A stretch of 64,000 bases of DNA from a phage. The number at the start of each line of letters is the position of its first letter. The stretch's first letter is position 1. The translations under genes and the position numbers were made by a program. The stretch lies in the NCBI GenBank assembly GCA_024449565.1, contig GCA_024449565.1_4810.1; one strand, written 5' to 3'. The notes beneath the pieces are model-generated. The model made no database searches. It had not been told where the DNA came from and saw nothing but the letters and a program-made list of their open reading frames with translations. Of this stretch, positions 26,809 through 40,279 are shown piece by piece.

Positions 26809-26836
26809 GACCCACACTTGATGTGGGTCTTTTTTC
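26809..26836 (+). terminator. intrinsic terminator after the KAE-rich gene
   Basis: gacccaca/tgtgggtc 8-bp stem, loop cttga, then ttttttcg. Confidence 0.6.
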
Positions 26837-26914: not shown

Positions 26915-27910
26915 ATGAACATGAAACAACCTGTAATGATTATCGGCGGCGGCTTGGCAGGACTTATTACCGCGTGTCACTTCCCGAACTCCATTGTGTA
27001 CGAAGCAGGGGAACGAGCGCCACAGCACAAGGCGCTGCTACGCTTTCGCGGCGAAGAAGTAAGCCGTATTACCGGAATCCCTTTTAAGGCCGTGACAGTT
27101 GACAAGGCTGTGTATTTTCGCGGTAACTACTATAACGACCATTGCCCAATCAACCTTGCCAATATGTATTCGATGAAGGTCACCAATCAGTTTGGTAGCC
27201 GTTCAATCATGAAGCTTAAAACTGCAACGCGTTATATTGCGCCGGACGACTTCTATGATCAGCTTGTCGATAAACTGGGTGATCGCATATTCTTCAATAC
27301 TCCGGTTGACACGCTTTGCGGCTATAGCGAGACGCCAATCATCAATACATCGCCGCTGCCAGTCATGATGAAGCTGGCAGGAATTGATCAAAATATTGAC
27401 TTTTCATTCGATAAAGCAAACATTCGCGTTTACCGCTTTAAGATTAAACGTAAGTGTGAACTGTATCAAACCATTTACTTTCCTGATTGCTCCGTCAGAA
27501 CTTACCGTGCATCAATCACTGGCGACACATTGATCATTGAAACAATTCCTTTGGTTAGCGTAAGTGAAGCCGCAGTTGAAGCCGCTGGCGGCATTACTCG
27601 TTACCGTGACATTAAGTTGCGTGCAGAAGTTGACGAAGTGTTGACGGCCTTTGGTCTTTCATGGAGTGACATTTCTCTCGAAGAAGTTGAAAAGGTCGAC
27701 CAGAAGTATGGCAAGATTGTCGACATTCCGAAAGACTTGCGACACGCTCTACTCCTACAGCTGACCATGGATTTGAACGTATTCAGTGTCGGTCGATTCG
27801 CTACTTGGCGAAACATTTTGCTTGATGACGTTGCTCATGACCTTGTTGAAGTTGAAAAACTCATCAAAGCAAATAACTATCAAAAATTTGCTTATATTGC
27901 TAATAAATAA
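26915..27910 (+). CDS. FAD/NAD(P)-binding oxidoreductase-like protein
   Basis: 331 aa; N-terminal dinucleotide-binding fingerprint VMIIGGGLAGLITA. Confidence 0.55.
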   Translation: MNMKQPVMIIGGGLAGLITACHFPNSIVYEAGERAPQHKALLRFRGEEVSRITGIPFKAVTVDKAVYFRGNYYNDHCPINLANMYSMKVTNQFGSRSIMKLKTATRYIAPDDFYDQLVDKLGDRIFFNTPVDTLCGYSETPIINTSPLPVMMKLAGIDQNIDFSFDKANIRVYRFKIKRKCELYQTIYFPDCSVRTYRASITGDTLIIETIPLVSVSEAAVEAAGGITRYRDIKLRAEVDEVLTAFGLSWSDISLEEVEKVDQKYGKIVDIPKDLRHALLLQLTMDLNVFSVGRFATWRNILLDDVAHDLVEVEKLIKANNYQKFAYIANK

Positions 27911-27976: not shown

Positions 27977-28423
27977 ATGAAACGCATCACTGGAATCGCG
28001 CTTGCCGCAACTGCTATTCTCGGAACCATGTATATGGAAGCGACTGAAGCTGCCATCCGTACTTCCGATTCAATCGCTGTTTACGATTGCGAAGCGATGG
28101 ACGGCAAGACCGCAGCGACGACTGGCGCAACAATTACCACTTACATCGGTGTGAACGAGCAGGAAGGTCTGAATATTCAGATTCAGGGATTCACCGGAAA
28201 AGGCGCCAACCGGACTCCGTGGATGCAGCGTTTCACTTTCGTTCAGCCTCGTTCGACTGGCGACTTTATTAACCTGATTGGTGAAAACCGTTCTGGTGCA
28301 GAAATCTTTACCTCAATGAGTTCTAATAATGAACCAAAGAAAAGTTTTCAGTTGCTTTATAACGCACAATTCGTTTATCATTGCACCTTCTCTGGTGATC
28401 AGCAACTAGTGAATTACCGTTAA
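27977..28423 (+). CDS. secreted protein with signal peptide (148 aa)
   Basis: AAGAGG RBS; N-terminal signal-peptide-like segment MKRITGIALAATAILGTMYMEATEAA; two Cys in the mature part. Confidence 0.6.
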   Translation: MKRITGIALAATAILGTMYMEATEAAIRTSDSIAVYDCEAMDGKTAATTGATITTYIGVNEQEGLNIQIQGFTGKGANRTPWMQRFTFVQPRSTGDFINLIGENRSGAEIFTSMSSNNEPKKSFQLLYNAQFVYHCTFSGDQQLVNYR

Positions 28424-28436
28424 TAGGATAATTAAA

Positions 28437-29246
28437 ATGAAAGTTGAATTAATTCGATACACCCAAGATGCACTTGACCTTTTGCTGGAAACAAAGAACA
28501 CGCGCATGACTGGTAAGCCAGTCTCTGAGATGACAGAATCAGAGAAGCAAGAGCACTGGCGCTACATGCTTGATACAATCAAGTCTCCTTTTGACTTTGT
28601 GGACTATATCTTTGATATCACAGCTGTATCAAAGAACATGACCCATCAGATGGTACGCACACGCACAGGCGCATATCAAGAACGCACCAGCCGCGCTCAG
28701 GAGTCGTCTGCATTTGATGCGATTCGTCCGAAGGCATTCGAGCACCCTTCTGACTGCAATGATGAAAATGCATTTGATGATGTGCACATAAGAAATCACT
28801 CATTGGCAGAGAAGTGGGATGATGCGATGGCCACGATTGACGCTCTATACCAAGAGCTTCGCGCGGCTGGCGCAGAGATTCAAGATGCACGTGCCGTGTT
28901 GCCTTCTAATATGCAAACGCATATCATGGCAAAGTTCAACTTGCGCACTCTACAACAAATGGCCTCTAACCGCTTGTGCACGCGTACTCAAGGCGAGTAT
29001 CAAGAAGTATTCCGTGCAATGGTTGCGGAAGTCCTTAAGGTGCACCCGTGGGCCAATCCTTTACTACAGCCGCAGTGCATCGGTATGGGTAAGTGTGCAT
29101 TTCCTCGTCACGGTAAGGCCCATTGCCCATGGTATCGTGATTGGATGGATACGACTGCACAGCAAGAAGAATTGCGCATTCAGTTTTGGGATGCCGCGCC
29201 AATCACCAACAATCCAGTTGCTAAAGATGGAGTATCAAAAGGATGA
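28437..29246 (+). CDS. thyX: flavin-dependent thymidylate synthase (ThyX)-like protein, divergent active-site motifs
   Basis: 269 aa; SPFDFVDYIFDITAVSKNMTHQMVRTRTGAYQERTSR matches the ThyX core, with RHR as RTR and SPFEH as SPFDF. Confidence 0.6.
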   Translation: MKVELIRYTQDALDLLLETKNTRMTGKPVSEMTESEKQEHWRYMLDTIKSPFDFVDYIFDITAVSKNMTHQMVRTRTGAYQERTSRAQESSAFDAIRPKAFEHPSDCNDENAFDDVHIRNHSLAEKWDDAMATIDALYQELRAAGAEIQDARAVLPSNMQTHIMAKFNLRTLQQMASNRLCTRTQGEYQEVFRAMVAEVLKVHPWANPLLQPQCIGMGKCAFPRHGKAHCPWYRDWMDTTAQQEELRIQFWDAAPITNNPVAKDGVSKG

Positions 29247-30115
29247 GCATTAAAAACAGCGAAATCTTAAATGTATTCGACCTTGACGGAACGCTGTTTG
29301 ATGACCGTTGGCGCTTAGACCGCATTAAGGTGGCAGGTCCGTTGTCAGACTATGATGATTATCACAGCGGTATTGGTTATGATCAGTTCTATCCTCACAT
29401 TGCATCAGCAGTAGAGTCGGCATCTCTTCGCGGTGAGGCGGTTGAATATTGGACTGCAAGGCCAGAAAAATACAGACAAGTGACTTTTGAACGTCTGGAC
29501 AATGTTTTTCCTTTTGATGAATTTACAATCAAGATGAGAGACTATGGCGACAAACGTCCATCAACTATTATGAAATCTGCATGGCTATCGCACGCATTGC
29601 GGCACGGCGATTATCGAATCATCAACGTATTCGACGACCGACAAGACGTACTCGCGCGGATGCAAGATGAAGCATTGTATTATAATTCCGTTGCTCAAAA
29701 TAAAATCGCTTTTACATTTAATCTTTGCAAGGCAGGTGAAGTGGTGCAACAATTAGCAATTGATCCAAGCGCAACAGGGCAAGAAGAGACTAAGGCTGTG
29801 GAAGTTGAACAATCTCCGGCAACTGCCGCCGATATTCTTGATGCAATGGCAGCAACCTTCCGTGAGCGCAACGCTGTCTATGGCGATAACGCTGTGATGG
29901 TAGGTCAGGTTATGCAAGTGCTTTTCCCTAATGGCGTGACGTTGAAAACGCCGGAAGACTACCACATGTGGCATCTGTTCGAGCTTAAGATTGTCAAGCT
30001 TACACGCTTCGCAATCAGCGGCCTGAAGCACGAAGACTCTATACACGATGATGGTGTTTACAGCGCCATGTGTGAACGTCTTGTTAACACCCATAATATT
30101 AATTTCAATAAATAG
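29243..30115 (+). CDS. HAD-superfamily phosphatase-like protein with unknown C-terminal domain
   Basis: 290 aa; HAD motif I FDLDGTLFDD at the N-terminus; start overlaps ThyX-like stop. Confidence 0.55.
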   Translation: MSIKNSEILNVFDLDGTLFDDRWRLDRIKVAGPLSDYDDYHSGIGYDQFYPHIASAVESASLRGEAVEYWTARPEKYRQVTFERLDNVFPFDEFTIKMRDYGDKRPSTIMKSAWLSHALRHGDYRIINVFDDRQDVLARMQDEALYYNSVAQNKIAFTFNLCKAGEVVQQLAIDPSATGQEETKAVEVEQSPATAADILDAMAATFRERNAVYGDNAVMVGQVMQVLFPNGVTLKTPEDYHMWHLFELKIVKLTRFAISGLKHEDSIHDDGVYSAMCERLVNTHNINFNK

Positions 30116-30180: not shown

Positions 30181-30864
30181 ATGAAAAAAGTAATTGTTGT
30201 AACTGGCTGCAATTCCGGTCTTGGTAAGTCCATTTTTGACACCCTTGGCGCTTACGGTCATGAAGTTGTCGGTATTGATTTGGAGAACGGCTATGACATC
30301 CGTAACGCGAAACAGATGAAAGAGCTTCTCTCTCAATACGACGTAGAAGGCTTGATCAACTGCGCTGGCGTCAACTCCAACAACTGGTTCGAAGATGTTA
30401 ACTACGAAGAGTTCAATCGCGTTATGCACACCAACGCCTTCTCTTTCGTCAACACGACTCAGGCCGCGCTGAAAAGTCTTATTGACAACAAAGGTTTTGT
30501 GATCAACATCGTTTCCAACGCTGCGCATATTCCTATGACGTCCAGCTTGTGTTATAATGCTTCCAAGGCTGCTGCGCTCATGATTAGCAAGCAGATGGCT
30601 CACGAGCTTACGCCTAAATACGGGATCACGGTATTCTCTATTAGTCCTAACAAGCTACGTGGTACTGGCATGTCCAAACAGATTGAAGATGCTGTTTGCG
30701 CGACTCGCGGCTGGACTCCTGAATACGCTGCTGAATACCAGAAAAAGGCACTGATGAATGGATTGGAGACTGAGCCGCAAGTAATTGCTGACTTCATTCG
30801 CCATATCTTAATTACGGGCGCATGGCGCTTTATGTCTGGTACTGATATTCCATTTGGGAAATAA
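30181..30864 (+). CDS. short-chain dehydrogenase/reductase (SDR)
   Basis: 227 aa; cofactor motif VTGCNSGLGKS; catalytic YNASK (YxxxK). Confidence 0.75.
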   Translation: MKKVIVVTGCNSGLGKSIFDTLGAYGHEVVGIDLENGYDIRNAKQMKELLSQYDVEGLINCAGVNSNNWFEDVNYEEFNRVMHTNAFSFVNTTQAALKSLIDNKGFVINIVSNAAHIPMTSSLCYNASKAAALMISKQMAHELTPKYGITVFSISPNKLRGTGMSKQIEDAVCATRGWTPEYAAEYQKKALMNGLETEPQVIADFIRHILITGAWRFMSGTDIPFGK

Positions 30865-31058: not shown

Positions 31059-31610
31059 ATGCCACATTTTAAAATTGAACAAATCGCCCTGTCAATCCCA
31101 GATGCTCAACGCGCTCAGGACTTCCTGGCTAAAATAGGCCTGACAGAATGGTTCCATGATCACGTTGTTGCTACTGGTCGCGTATTTGAAGCTGATTACT
31201 TTAAAGGTCAGCGCGGCGATTGCACCAATGAAGCTAACTTGCGCTTCAACTATCAGGCTGGCAACGGTACTGATGGCGGCGCTGGTAAGCCTCTTGAGCT
31301 TGAAATCCTTGACTATACAAAAGGTTGCAACTGGATTCGCGAAAACATCGAATACATCGATGCGCACGACAATCAGGTTAGCCATCTTGGTATGCACGTG
31401 ACTGCCGCTGAACTTGCTGAATGGCGCAAGTTCTTTAAAGAAGAAGGCATTCAGGTTGCGCAGGAAGTTGTGACCGACTCTCACACCAACCCAAACATTG
31501 CTGGTCAGCGTCGTTACAACTATGTAATCTTTGATACGCGTGAAATCATCGGCGTTGATTTGAAGTTTATCGTGCGGTTGAATCAAGACGGTACTCCGTA
31601 CACTGCATAA
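31059..31610 (+). CDS. VOC (glyoxalase/dioxygenase-like) family protein, tentative
   Basis: 183 aa; AAGGAAA RBS; N-terminal HFKIEQIALSIPDAQRAQDFLAKIGL resembles the VOC beta-alpha-beta-beta-beta signature. Confidence 0.45.
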   Translation: MPHFKIEQIALSIPDAQRAQDFLAKIGLTEWFHDHVVATGRVFEADYFKGQRGDCTNEANLRFNYQAGNGTDGGAGKPLELEILDYTKGCNWIRENIEYIDAHDNQVSHLGMHVTAAELAEWRKFFKEEGIQVAQEVVTDSHTNPNIAGQRRYNYVIFDTREIIGVDLKFIVRLNQDGTPYTA

Positions 31611-31626
31611 CGAATCTTGAATCTGT

Positions 31627-31651
31627 GGCCGTCCTAATGGGCGGCCTTTTT
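31627..31651 (+). terminator. intrinsic terminator after the enzyme cluster
   Basis: ggccgtcc/gggcggcc stem, loop taat, then ttttt. Confidence 0.55.
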
Positions 31652-39140: not shown

Positions 39141-39659
39141 ATGATAGAAAGAATTGTACCGCTCCTGAAGATTCTGGCCCTTGTCGGCGCGTTTGCCGCT
39201 GGATCATACGTTGAAGACCTTAAGCAAACCAACGCATCACTGGCCAAGGATAATCAATATCTGACATCGCTTAATGAGCGTAAGGACAAGATAAATGCAC
39301 TCGAAGAGCAAATTGCAACTTTACAGGTTGAATCGGCATCGGCATATGAGAAGGGTCGCCAGGAAGCGCAACTGGTTGCTGATGACACTATTGCTCGTTA
39401 CAAGTCTGGGAATATCAAGCTGCGCGAGCAACTCAGCTGCTCCCGTGAGTTACTCAGGAGTGTGCCCGACTCTGCGACCACTGGACGCCTCTCTATCCCA
39501 GAAGGAAACTGTGGACTATCAGAAGAAGATGTCAGATTTCTTGTTCAGTTCGCCGCAGAAACAAATCGATTAAAAGAGAAAGTTAATAGCTTGATTGATA
39601 CTTATAATCAGGCTAAAATAAAAATCGATCAATTCAATGCATCAAAGGAAAATAAATGA
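39141..39659 (+). CDS. i-spanin-like protein (Rz-like): N-terminal TM anchor plus coiled coil
   Basis: 172 aa; TM helix IVPLLKILALVGAFAAGSYV then coiled-coil region; contains embedded lipoprotein ORF in another frame. Confidence 0.5.
   Translation: MIERIVPLLKILALVGAFAAGSYVEDLKQTNASLAKDNQYLTSLNERKDKINALEEQIATLQVESASAYEKGRQEAQLVADDTIARYKSGNIKLREQLSCSRELLRSVPDSATTGRLSIPEGNCGLSEEDVRFLVQFAAETNRLKEKVNSLIDTYNQAKIKIDQFNASKENK
39346..39573 (+). CDS. o-spanin-like outer-membrane lipoprotein (Rz1-like), embedded in alternate frame
   Basis: Track ORF 39295-39573; lipoprotein signal with lipobox-like LVTSLGISSC; entirely inside the i-spanin-like gene. Start codon uncertain. Confidence 0.45.
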   Translation: MRRVARKRNWLLMTLLLVTSLGISSCASNSAAPVSYSGVCPTLRPLDASLSQKETVDYQKKMSDFLFSSPQKQID

Positions 39660-40279
39660 AACAGATTTATGCAAACATTCGCCATTGGGCTTCTGACCGT
39701 AACATCATCCAAGGTTGCGACCTTAAGGACCAATACCCGAAGCTTATCAGCGAGTTTGGGGAGTTAACCGACCACGTTGATCAACTCCATGACCTTGTGT
39801 TCTTCGACCCTGAAATTGGCTATACAGAGCAGGCCATCTGTGACTTGCAGGCCGCAATTAAGGACGACATTGGCGATTGCCTTGTTGTGTTGACCATCCT
39901 GGCAGCGCAAAACGGTACTGAAATCGAAAACATTAATGGCGGCGGTTGCGCTGATAAAGGTGCTCACCCTCATTCATTTATCCTTCGCCTGGCAAAGACC
40001 CTTGGACGACTTGGTGATGCTATTGCCAAGAATCAGACCATGGATATTGACGTCACCATCATGGCCGCAGTCGATTACCTTTCCGGCGTAGCTCATGATT
40101 ATGGCCTTCGCTTATCCGACTGTGCGCAAGCGGCCTACGAAGACATCAAGGACCGCAAAGGTGTCATGTACAACGGAACGTTCATCAAATCTACTGATCC
40201 AGCTTATGAGCACTCCTGCAAAATGGTAAAGAAGCTGGAACTTGAAGACCGTGTGATCAGAGAAGTTACAGGACAATAA
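39656..40279 (+). CDS. MazG-like nucleoside triphosphate pyrophosphohydrolase
   Basis: 207 aa; EFGELTDH motif (ExxGEL) typical of all-alpha NTP-PPases. Confidence 0.5.
   Translation: MKQIYANIRHWASDRNIIQGCDLKDQYPKLISEFGELTDHVDQLHDLVFFDPEIGYTEQAICDLQAAIKDDIGDCLVVLTILAAQNGTEIENINGGGCADKGAHPHSFILRLAKTLGRLGDAIAKNQTMDIDVTIMAAVDYLSGVAHDYGLRLSDCAQAAYEDIKDRKGVMYNGTFIKSTDPAYEHSCKMVKKLELEDRVIREVTGQ

Follow-up and report, generated by a model that had tools for sequence, protein, structure and literature searches.

The 64,000-nucleotide (nt) stretch of phage DNA analysed here (NCBI GenBank assembly GCA_024449565.1, contig GCA_024449565.1_4810.1; hereafter the window) belongs to a Wifcevirus and is ~95% identical to Bas99, FEC19 and WFH. 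At positions 28437..29246 of its plus strand it encodes a 269-residue flavoenzyme of the ThyX/Thy1 family that lacks His53 and Tyr91 of canonical ThyX and belongs to a variant class, here termed class II. Class II is a large ThyX clade found on phage or phage-sized contigs only, and it is co-inherited with a flavoprotein of the UDP-galactopyranose mutase (UGM) fold. We tentatively favour, at a little less than an even chance, the reading that class II ThyX makes a product of the 5-hydroxymethyl-deoxyuridine monophosphate (5-hmdUMP) type that feeds thymidine hypermodification; a plain, divergent thymidylate synthase is nearly tied with it.

The ATG-initiated open reading frame (ORF) spans exactly these coordinates. 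An AGGA motif lies 8 nt 5' of the ATG, and the stop codon shares ATGA with the start of the downstream gene. The product matches Pfam PF02511 (Thy1) with E=9.1e-30 and 104 bits (cut-off 24.8), its residues 5-205 aligning with profile positions 2-191, and PHROG 85 ('thymidylate synthase') with E=8e-37. Solved ThyX enzymes are distant sequence relatives (best E=2.7e-4, HMMER against PDB chains). An AlphaFold2 (AF2) model built from 102 homologues reached a predicted local distance difference test score (pLDDT) of 89 and a predicted template modelling score (pTM) of 0.83, and the top 50 Foldseek matches to this model are all ThyX. The best fold match is Thermotoga maritima ThyX 1o26, with a template modelling (TM) score of 0.74 (normalised to the target) and ~21% identity. 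On the profile matches and the predicted structure, the product is a genuine, full-length and folded Thy1/ThyX homologue, and the alignment of its core (residues 50-86, SPFDFVDYIFDITAVSKNMTHQMVRTRTGAYQERTSR) with the ThyX signature, which a sequence-only reading of the window had claimed, is confirmed. All database entries that we encountered for similar proteins are named 'thymidylate synthase'. The product scores 80.3 bits against TIGR02170, the NCBI thyX equivalog model, under its cut-off of 87.9; T. maritima ThyX scores 227.

Residues were mapped onto T. maritima ThyX (Tm) numbering by a HMMER alignment to PDB chains and three MAFFT alignments, which were in agreement. Residues 51-201 of the T. 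maritima sequence used were verified by the HMMER/PDB alignment. Lost from the product are H53 (now I48), H59 (F54), H79 (T75), S83 (A79), N85 (Q81), S88 (T84) and Y91 (A87); R74 (H70) and H178 (R183) are also changed. Kept are Q75 (Q71), R78 (R74), R80 (R76), E86 (E82), R90 (R86), R147 (R152), N163 (N168), R165 (R170) and R174 (R179). The segment I48-K-S-P-F-D-F54 (28578..28598, plus strand) is the counterpart of Tm H53...T55-P-F-E-H59, so that Tm T55-P-F-E-H59 reads S50-P-F-D-F54; both histidines are replaced, and I48 and F54 are invariant across 65 clade members in a MAFFT alignment. The ThyX-motif region, H70-Q-M-V-R74-T75-R76-T-G-A79-Y-Q81-E-R-T84-S-R86-A87 (28644..28697, plus strand), does not match the ThyX motif RHRxxSxxxxSxR: its three arginines are kept, with Thr for the histidine, Ala for the first serine and Thr for the second.

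Both alignment methods place Thr at the RHR histidine (Tm His79) and Phe at the SPFEH histidine (Tm His59), as the sequence-only reading had it. The serine segment that it called rearranged proved to carry point substitutions, S83 to A79 and S88 to T84, with R90 kept as R86. The more significant changes, H53 to I48, N85 to Q81 and Y91 to A87, had been overlooked. The general description, a ThyX fold with altered catalytic residues, is borne out, and the loss of the H53/N85/Y91 triad strengthens the case. No canonical residue is merely displaced: the two independent alignments concur, and in the relevant loops neither a His nor a Tyr stands close by.

In canonical ThyX, His53 stacks on the folate pterin and the reduced flavin, with Tyr91 and Asn85 keeping it in place through hydrogen bonds; Tyr91 is strictly conserved and His53 conserved, and mutation of Tyr91 lowers the rate of flavin oxidation 1000-fold (PMC11940539). 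The tyrosine acts as a lid that keeps solvent away from uracil C5 and flavin N5, and the RHR motif touches the phosphates and ribityl of flavin adenine dinucleotide (FAD) (PMC6514825). In the window, this folate-gate/acid triad of His53, Asn85 and Tyr91 is replaced by I48, Q81 and A87. The set that contacts deoxyuridine monophosphate (dUMP; Tm Q75, R78, R80, S88, R90, R147 and R174) is retained, with a conservative change of S88 to T84 and with arginines that are invariant in the clade; R78, R80, S88 and R90 hydrogen-bond dUMP in the canonical enzyme (PMC3498832). On the FAD side, counterparts of R78, R80, N163 and R165 are present, that of H79 is Thr and that of H178 is Arg. The change of R74 to His and the variation at position 178 are not diagnostic, because both occur in canonical enzymes too, and H40 and Y43 of the product, which align with Tm H43 and Y47, are common to both ThyX classes. 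Tm R174, R179 in the product, is the contact to uracil O4; its invariance makes dCMP (deoxycytidine monophosphate) an unlikely substrate.

The window's ThyX is one of many of its kind. All 120 of its nearest database proteins carry RTR. HMMER, run exhaustively against 1.84 billion proteins, gave 1604 clusters at E<=1e-3, from which the best 150 representatives were taken. Both His53 and Tyr91 are missing in 113 of the 127 full-length sequences among these, which have I/L/V at position 53, F at 59 and A/V/T/I/F/L at 91; the 11 that retain both stand at the weak end of the list. The contingency of the two residues is 11/1/2/113 (Fisher p=4e-13, not corrected for phylogeny). Position 79 varies in the variant class (T in 66, H in 21, Q in 13, S in 7 and N in 5) and is thus free within it, which makes the RHR histidine the least diagnostic of the changes. 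A neighbour-joining (NJ) tree of 163 sequences, rooted at the midpoint, separates a clade of 113 (108 variant, 5 mixed and no canonical) from a clade of 48 (47 canonical, 1 mixed and no variant). Outside the genus, the nearest homologues are in Serratia, Pantoea and Xanthomonas phages and in all Pbunavirus (PB1-like) phages, the last at 49% identity, and the query-like gene is kept in hundreds of sequenced lytic phages.

We also scanned GTDB with one genome per species, which gave 80 ThyX loci, 77 of them classifiable. Canonical H53 and Y91 are present in 73 of the 77, in assemblies labelled Leptospirales, other Spirochaetota, Caldisericota, Eremiobacterota, Firmicutes, an archaeon and others, and several of these loci sit on contigs of 0.3-3.7 Mb. 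Among the 25 class I (canonical) loci tabulated in full, H53, H59, RHR, S88 and Y91 are complete in every one. The four variant loci and one further locus (L004) are all on contigs of 10-65 kb. Pol III alpha was found on L003, L010 and L028 and the flavoprotein-ThyX cassette on L005, L010 and L028, which suggests that the four variant loci and L004 are phage contigs binned into metagenome-assembled genomes (MAGs). A group with RQR and F at position 91 lies, in the same scan, on contigs with Pol III alpha in MAGs labelled Actinomycetes and Gordonia. The idea that the long proteins of this group (one of 529 residues) are the characterised Chlamydia ThyX, an identity from which the substitutions would have followed to be compatible with thymidylate synthase activity, was dropped as unsupported, the cluster look-up having returned no names.

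In a set of three database homologues with class II thyX (P0165, P0158 and P0166) there are inteins near profile position 70, by the RxR motif, and a GIY-YIG homing-endonuclease fusion; such elements are typical of highly conserved phage nucleotide-metabolism genes. Among the fusion partners of long class II proteins we found only inteins, GIY-YIG and a sub-threshold Pam3_gp59 match, and several N-terminal regions had no Pfam match. Inteins in the core and a homing-endonuclease fusion, together with substrate-binding arginines that stay invariant at 30-60% identity, argue that class II enzymes are probably active.

The partner flavoprotein is encoded upstream of thyX at 26915..27910 (plus strand). 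Its 331 residues include a GxGxxG FAD-binding motif and have the fold shared by UGM, protoporphyrinogen oxidases and amine oxidases (PHROG 4828), with UGM as the best structural match. Compared with known flavoproteins of these kinds it is smaller (331 versus 365-470 residues) and 9-17% identical, and none of the Pfam and NCBIfam models matches it. The same flavoprotein lies just upstream of class II ThyX in phages of very different kinds: PB1, Cronobacter podovirus Ss1 (42 kb) and Rhizobium phage RHph_Y65 (207 kb). The pairing recurs on three MAG phage contigs and, judged by size and position, in metagenomic phages whose ThyX is only ~35% identical. The flavoprotein occurs in 362 records of the phage collection, and its counts equal those of query-like ThyX in Pseudomonas (292/292), Escherichia (27/27), Serratia (9/9) and Xanthomonas (6/6) phages; in Rhizobium phages they are 8/10. 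None of the actinophage, Bacillus and archaeal-virus ThyX groups has it. HAD (haloacid dehalogenase) and short-chain dehydrogenase/reductase (SDR) genes lie 3' of thyX in many of the paired loci.

A link to DNA modification comes from the sister genus of Wifcevirus, Pbunavirus. According to a 2025 preprint, the DNA of phages F8 and 14-1, long assumed to be unmodified, carries a novel thymidine-derived nucleoside that replaces about one quarter of T, in the TG context, with masses of 362 ('sugar alcohol derivative') and 390 ('circularized aldopentose derivative'); its authors describe such phages as being without known hypermodification genes and propose no biosynthetic genes (PMC12191111). By mass arithmetic, 362.3 corresponds to 5-hydroxymethyl-deoxyuridine (5-hmdU) plus a tetritol minus H2O, which is isomeric with a C-linked 1-deoxypentitol on deoxyuridine (dU), and 390.3 to 5-hmdU plus a pentose minus H2O. 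The TG context holds 26% of T in the window. In all earlier characterised thymidine hypermodification pathways, a ThyA-family hydroxymethylase installs the hydroxymethyl carbon on dUMP (PMC8989533), and acid traps 5-hmdUMP as an intermediate of canonical ThyX (PMC3498832). A tblastn search with E. coli ThyA found no match in the window or in RHph_Y65 (best E=0.53), which leaves class II ThyX as the sole C5 one-carbon transferase in both. No 5-hmdU DNA kinase or aGPT-Pplase was found in the scanned neighbourhood or in the annotations of Bas99, PB1, F8 and 14-1. For the first step of Pbunavirus thymidine hypermodification, the best candidate to date is class II ThyX.

F8 and 14-1 carry different adducts. 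Their ThyX and flavoprotein are 94-97% identical to each other, and most proteins of the region are 94-99% identical. ORF70 (PHROG 5310; L094 15894-17090 in F8, L095 15997-17301 in 14-1) is 56.5% identical, the HAD protein ORF57 81% and the small ORFs 58, 60 and 61 78-82%; these are candidates for adduct specificity or anti-defence.

Wifcevirus phages are reported to resist nearly all tested restriction systems in vivo. For EcoRI, EcoRV, EcoKI and EcoP1I, site avoidance is not the cause, given that their sites (13, 8, 8 and 81) are all present in the window at near-normal numbers. XbaI sites are strongly depleted there (1 versus 18 expected) and HindIII sites enriched (49 versus 18 expected).

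The flavoprotein and ThyX genes form part of a longer cassette on the plus strand. Two strong terminator-like hairpins, one upstream (26809..26829; 8-bp stem and T-run) and one downstream (31627..31646; 8-bp stem with 7 G-C pairs, and T-run), enclose seven genes: those for the flavoprotein, a 148-residue protein, ThyX, a HAD phosphatase, an SDR, a small ORF and a protein resembling the vicinal oxygen chelate (VOC) fold. The bracketing hairpins suggest a discrete transcription unit within the replication region. The 148-residue ORF (27977..28423), between the flavoprotein and ThyX genes, has a hydrophobic, signal-peptide-like N-terminus; it matched no family and had no homologue in the other phages compared, so that it is not conserved beyond the genus. 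Some Wifcevirus records annotate a 'TolA protein' somewhere around 27977-28423. The HAD gene (29243..30115), whose start overlaps the thyX stop, encodes a phosphatase of the PNKP-phosphatase type with a DxDGT motif (HAD_PNKP, E=5e-8; PHROG 4889), followed by a weakly DUF6378-like domain of ~90 residues; a HAD gene also lies 3' of thyX in PB1, L005, L010, L028 and L086. The SDR gene (30181..30864) is FabG-like, with TGxxxGxG and YxxxK motifs (Pfam adh_short, E=1e-31); it has counterparts in matching position in L005, L086 and L087 and is absent from PB1, F8 and 14-1. The last gene of the unit (31059..31610) encodes 183 residues with a weak glyoxalase/VOC-fold match (Glyoxalase_4, E=0.0023, below the cut-off) and has a homologue in L005.

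The C-terminal ~115 residues of the HAD protein (29768-30112) hold the ~90-residue domain, which is conserved, with invariant Y-G, F-P-x-G and D-S..D..Y elements. It is fused to HAD in the window, PB1, F8 and 14-1 and free-standing in distant phages (L086 10538-10867, L087 12887-13204). Weak DUF6378 matches were all that we found for it, with no structural relative, and for that reason we set aside its identification as a MazG-like nucleoside triphosphate (NTP) pyrophosphatase, which would suggest exclusion of deoxythymidine triphosphate. A gene for a MazG-like pyrophosphatase is present elsewhere, at 39656-40279, 10 kb downstream of the cassette.

In the reaction that we tentatively propose, reduced FAD would carry the one-carbon unit onto C5 of dUMP. 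With neither the Tyr91 lid and acid nor the His53 gate, the exocyclic methylene would escape reduction and react with water or a different oxygen nucleophile, and the product would be 5-hydroxymethyl-dUMP or a close relative, an entry metabolite for Pbunavirus-like hypermodification. The flavoprotein, HAD and SDR, with further enzymes at the DNA level, would then supply and attach the sugar-derived group in a TG-specific manner. The reduced flavin would act catalytically and with no net oxidation, as in UGM, and a flavin used in this way would make the triad that gates reduced nicotinamide adenine dinucleotide phosphate (NADPH) and folate dispensable. The suggestion of the sequence-only reading that the enzyme performs a different C5 chemistry, hydroxymethylation for example, thereby gains circumstantial support from the cassette, the lack of a ThyA match, the sister-genus nucleoside and the restriction resistance. 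Taken together with its partner, class II ThyX might represent a flavin-based route to C5-functionalised deoxyuridylate, either 5-hmdUMP or a sugar-bearing form, and so the missing entry to the Pbunavirus modification; we hold this broader proposal slightly more loosely than the 5-hmdUMP assignment itself.

Several observations weigh against a 5-hmdUMP product. With ~75% ordinary T and TG specificity, a nucleotide-level hydroxymethylase alone cannot explain the Pbunavirus pattern, and we looked for the extra DNA-level enzymes that TG specificity calls for and identified none. Position 91 is hydrophobic (V, I, F or L) in many class II proteins, and with so bulky a residue an opening of the site to water would not hold across the class. 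TG occurs in neither EcoRI nor EcoRV sites, and a TG modification of the Pbunavirus type would therefore not explain resistance to these two enzymes. Actinophage class II proteins lack the flavoprotein partner. The gene order is largely common to a conserved Pol III alpha replication module, and part of the synteny may be inherited with it; RHph_Y65, however, uses a family A polymerase and yet keeps the trio within 6 kb, beside dUTPase and ribonucleotide reductase (RNR) genes, which argues that the pairing is not replication-module synteny alone. RHph_Y65 also encodes dCMP deaminase, dihydrofolate reductase (DHFR) and 5'-deoxynucleotidase, with class II ThyX and no ThyA match, and this gene set fits a plain thymidylate synthase equally well.

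The strongest competitor, which we regard as a serious possibility at somewhat below even chances, is that class II ThyX is the phage's ordinary thymidylate synthase, converting dUMP to deoxythymidine monophosphate (dTMP) in an unusual active site, and that hypermodification is made later on DNA. Homology provides the strongest prior for it, the gene lies within the DNA-replication module, and all arginines that contact dUMP and flavin are kept. The free variation of position 79 (T, H, Q, S or N) indicates that the RHR histidine is dispensable, while mostly canonical T and sequence-specific modification in Pbunavirus imply chemistry at the DNA level. In RHph_Y65, moreover, class II ThyX is the sole thymidylate-synthase-like gene beside those for dCMP deaminase, dUTPase, RNR and DHFR. 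The presence of DHFR in that phage, with no ThyA to produce dihydrofolate, would be unexpected if ThyX regenerates tetrahydrofolate (L089 609-1124, EVB97_003; L090, L091). A plain synthase might have dropped the His53/Tyr91 gate and perhaps gained speed at the cost of regulation or oxidase protection, or might use a different reductant or mode of one-carbon delivery, possibly via the partner flavoprotein. It has to accommodate the conservation of His53 and the strict conservation of Tyr91 in studied ThyX, where mutating the tyrosine costs three orders of magnitude in flavin oxidation (PMC11940539). The score below the curated TIGR02170 threshold also counts against it, as does the finding of class II on no clearly cellular contig, which is odd for a housekeeping enzyme and parallels the phage-only ThyA hydroxymethylases. 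Nor does standard dTMP synthesis have a place for the obligate UGM-fold partner or for the HAD and SDR neighbours.

UGM forms a covalent flavin-sugar intermediate. By analogy, the flavoprotein and ThyX might jointly attach a sugar carbon to C5 of dUMP through a flavin-N5 iminium, giving a C-C-linked 5-(1-deoxypentitol-1-yl)-dU nucleotide of mass 362. The partner's closest fold is UGM, the pair is strictly co-inherited, and 362.3 fits a C5-(1-deoxypentitol-1-yl) dU exactly as well as the ether isomer. We nevertheless consider this improbable: the idea is an analogy from chemistry and no more, the two proteins each bind a flavin of their own, the TG specificity in Pbunavirus argues against incorporation of a pre-made nucleotide, and the 390 species better fits an O-glycoside of 5-hmdU. 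An equally slim chance goes to a different acceptor, with methylation or hydroxymethylation of dCMP, uridine monophosphate (UMP) or cytidine monophosphate (CMP). In vitro, PolB accepts dUMP and UMP alike for methylation (PMC5954106), and the Tyr91 counterpart is altered in the window; against this, the R174 counterpart is invariant and those of R90, R78 and Q75 are kept, which favours uracil, the modification in relatives is on thymidine and not cytidine, and a ribonucleotide-antibiotic context is lacking. Least probable of all is a catalytically dead relic or a non-enzymatic role, such as a nucleotide-binding regulator or an NAD(P)H oxidase only, because, although several residues that the canonical enzyme is said to require are gone, the contacts to substrate and flavin are strongly conserved among proteins that share only 30-60% identity, the conserved core hosts inteins and the gene is retained in hundreds of lytic phages.

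Apart from its active site, the protein carries a C-terminal extension with four cysteines, C181 and C214-x5-C220-x9-C230, and an invariant F222-P223-R224 (28977..29126, plus strand), seen in the alignment and the model. C181 (28977-28979) lies two residues past R179, and C214, C220 and C230 are encoded within 29076-29126. All four cysteines are invariant in the query's clade and residues 200-250 are modelled with high confidence; the extension is absent from T. maritima ThyX. From their arrangement, the cysteines probably form a metal site (Zn or Fe-S) that appears to be undescribed: a comparison of solved ThyX structures with a class I example of the cysteine region gave no match, and a literature search for a metal site in ThyX found nothing. 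The motif is not a hallmark of class II, since some canonical ThyX of cellular-labelled MAGs (loci L007, L009, L011, L024, L025 and L080) show a comparable RxC...CxnCxnC arrangement and the P0168-like group of class II lacks it.

ThyX is a studied antibiotic target, and papers on its mechanism regard Tyr91 and His53 as conserved residues of functional importance. A viral branch that has dispensed with both means either that the ThyX mechanism is more plastic than thought or that a new reaction is carried out. Failing the equivalog cut-off, RHRxxSxxxxSxR and the His53/Tyr91 pair, the product is not filed here as a verified ThyX thymidylate synthase, and the annotation 'thymidylate synthase' of class II proteins is best treated as unverified. 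Our literature searches found no characterised class II ThyX and no ThyX-type hydroxymethylase, nor a paper that recognises class II, the loss of its catalytic residues or its pairing with a flavoprotein. In therapy against Pseudomonas aeruginosa, Pbunavirus phages rank among the most used, and their modified thymidine was shown only in 2025; the small set of flavoprotein, ThyX, HAD and SDR genes is the prime candidate for making it. I/L/V at position 53, a residue other than Tyr at 91 and a paired PHROG 4828 gene offer a signature for phages with possibly modified DNA. If 5-hmdUMP is indeed the product, class II would open a new enzymatic route into DNA hypermodification, a flavin-dependent counterpart of the ThyA-derived hydroxymethylases. 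The broader proposal of a route shared with the flavoprotein would also explain the restriction resistance of Wifcevirus, and it predicts similar hidden DNA modifications in the many other phages that carry the pair.

Among known systems, the nearest by family are the canonical flavin-dependent thymidylate synthases (ThyX/FDTS; T. maritima TM0449, M. tuberculosis, H. pylori and PBCV-1 A674R), which share the Pfam family and, for T. maritima ThyX, the fold. Because counterparts of Q75, R78, R80, R90, R147, N163, R165 and R174 are conserved, dUMP probably stacks on FAD in the class II enzyme as it does in these. It differs from them in its low identity (~21%), in lacking H53, H59, H79, N85 and Y91, in Thr for S88, in the four-cysteine C-terminal extension, in forming a separate phage clade and in having a dedicated flavoprotein neighbour. 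Thymidine hypermodification pathways described by Lee et al. in 2018 and 2021 are said to lead from 5-hmdU through 5-HMUDK and aGPT-Pplase to further steps. The known pathways resemble the Pbunavirus case in a partial, sequence-biased replacement of T by 5-hmdU-derived adducts; their adducts are amines or amino acids, whereas those of Pbunavirus are sugar or polyol groups, and their hallmark genes (ThyA-type hydroxymethylase, 5-hmdU DNA kinase and aGPT-Pplase) are not recognisable at this locus. PDB 4p5a, a weak match to the product (E=0.5) that is labelled 'Thymidylate synthase ThyX', is probably PolB, whose sequence is only marginally similar to the query. PolB, the ThyX paralogue of Streptomyces polyoxin synthesis, sets the precedent for recruiting such a paralogue to pyrimidine modification in a secondary pathway; its main difference from ThyX is that UMP serves it as a substrate besides dUMP, and it works in an antibiotic pathway (PMC5954106). 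The ThyA-family dUMP and dCMP hydroxymethylases (SPO1, T4 gp42, ViI and M6) have an unrelated fold, a cysteine nucleophile and no flavin; the analogy that we propose is that of a virus-restricted synthase offshoot that hydrates the exocyclic methylene where a synthase would reduce it, and so feeds DNA hypermodification (PMC8989533, PMC3498832). PolB and the ThyA-derived hydroxymethylases are the closest conceptual precedents for class II ThyX.

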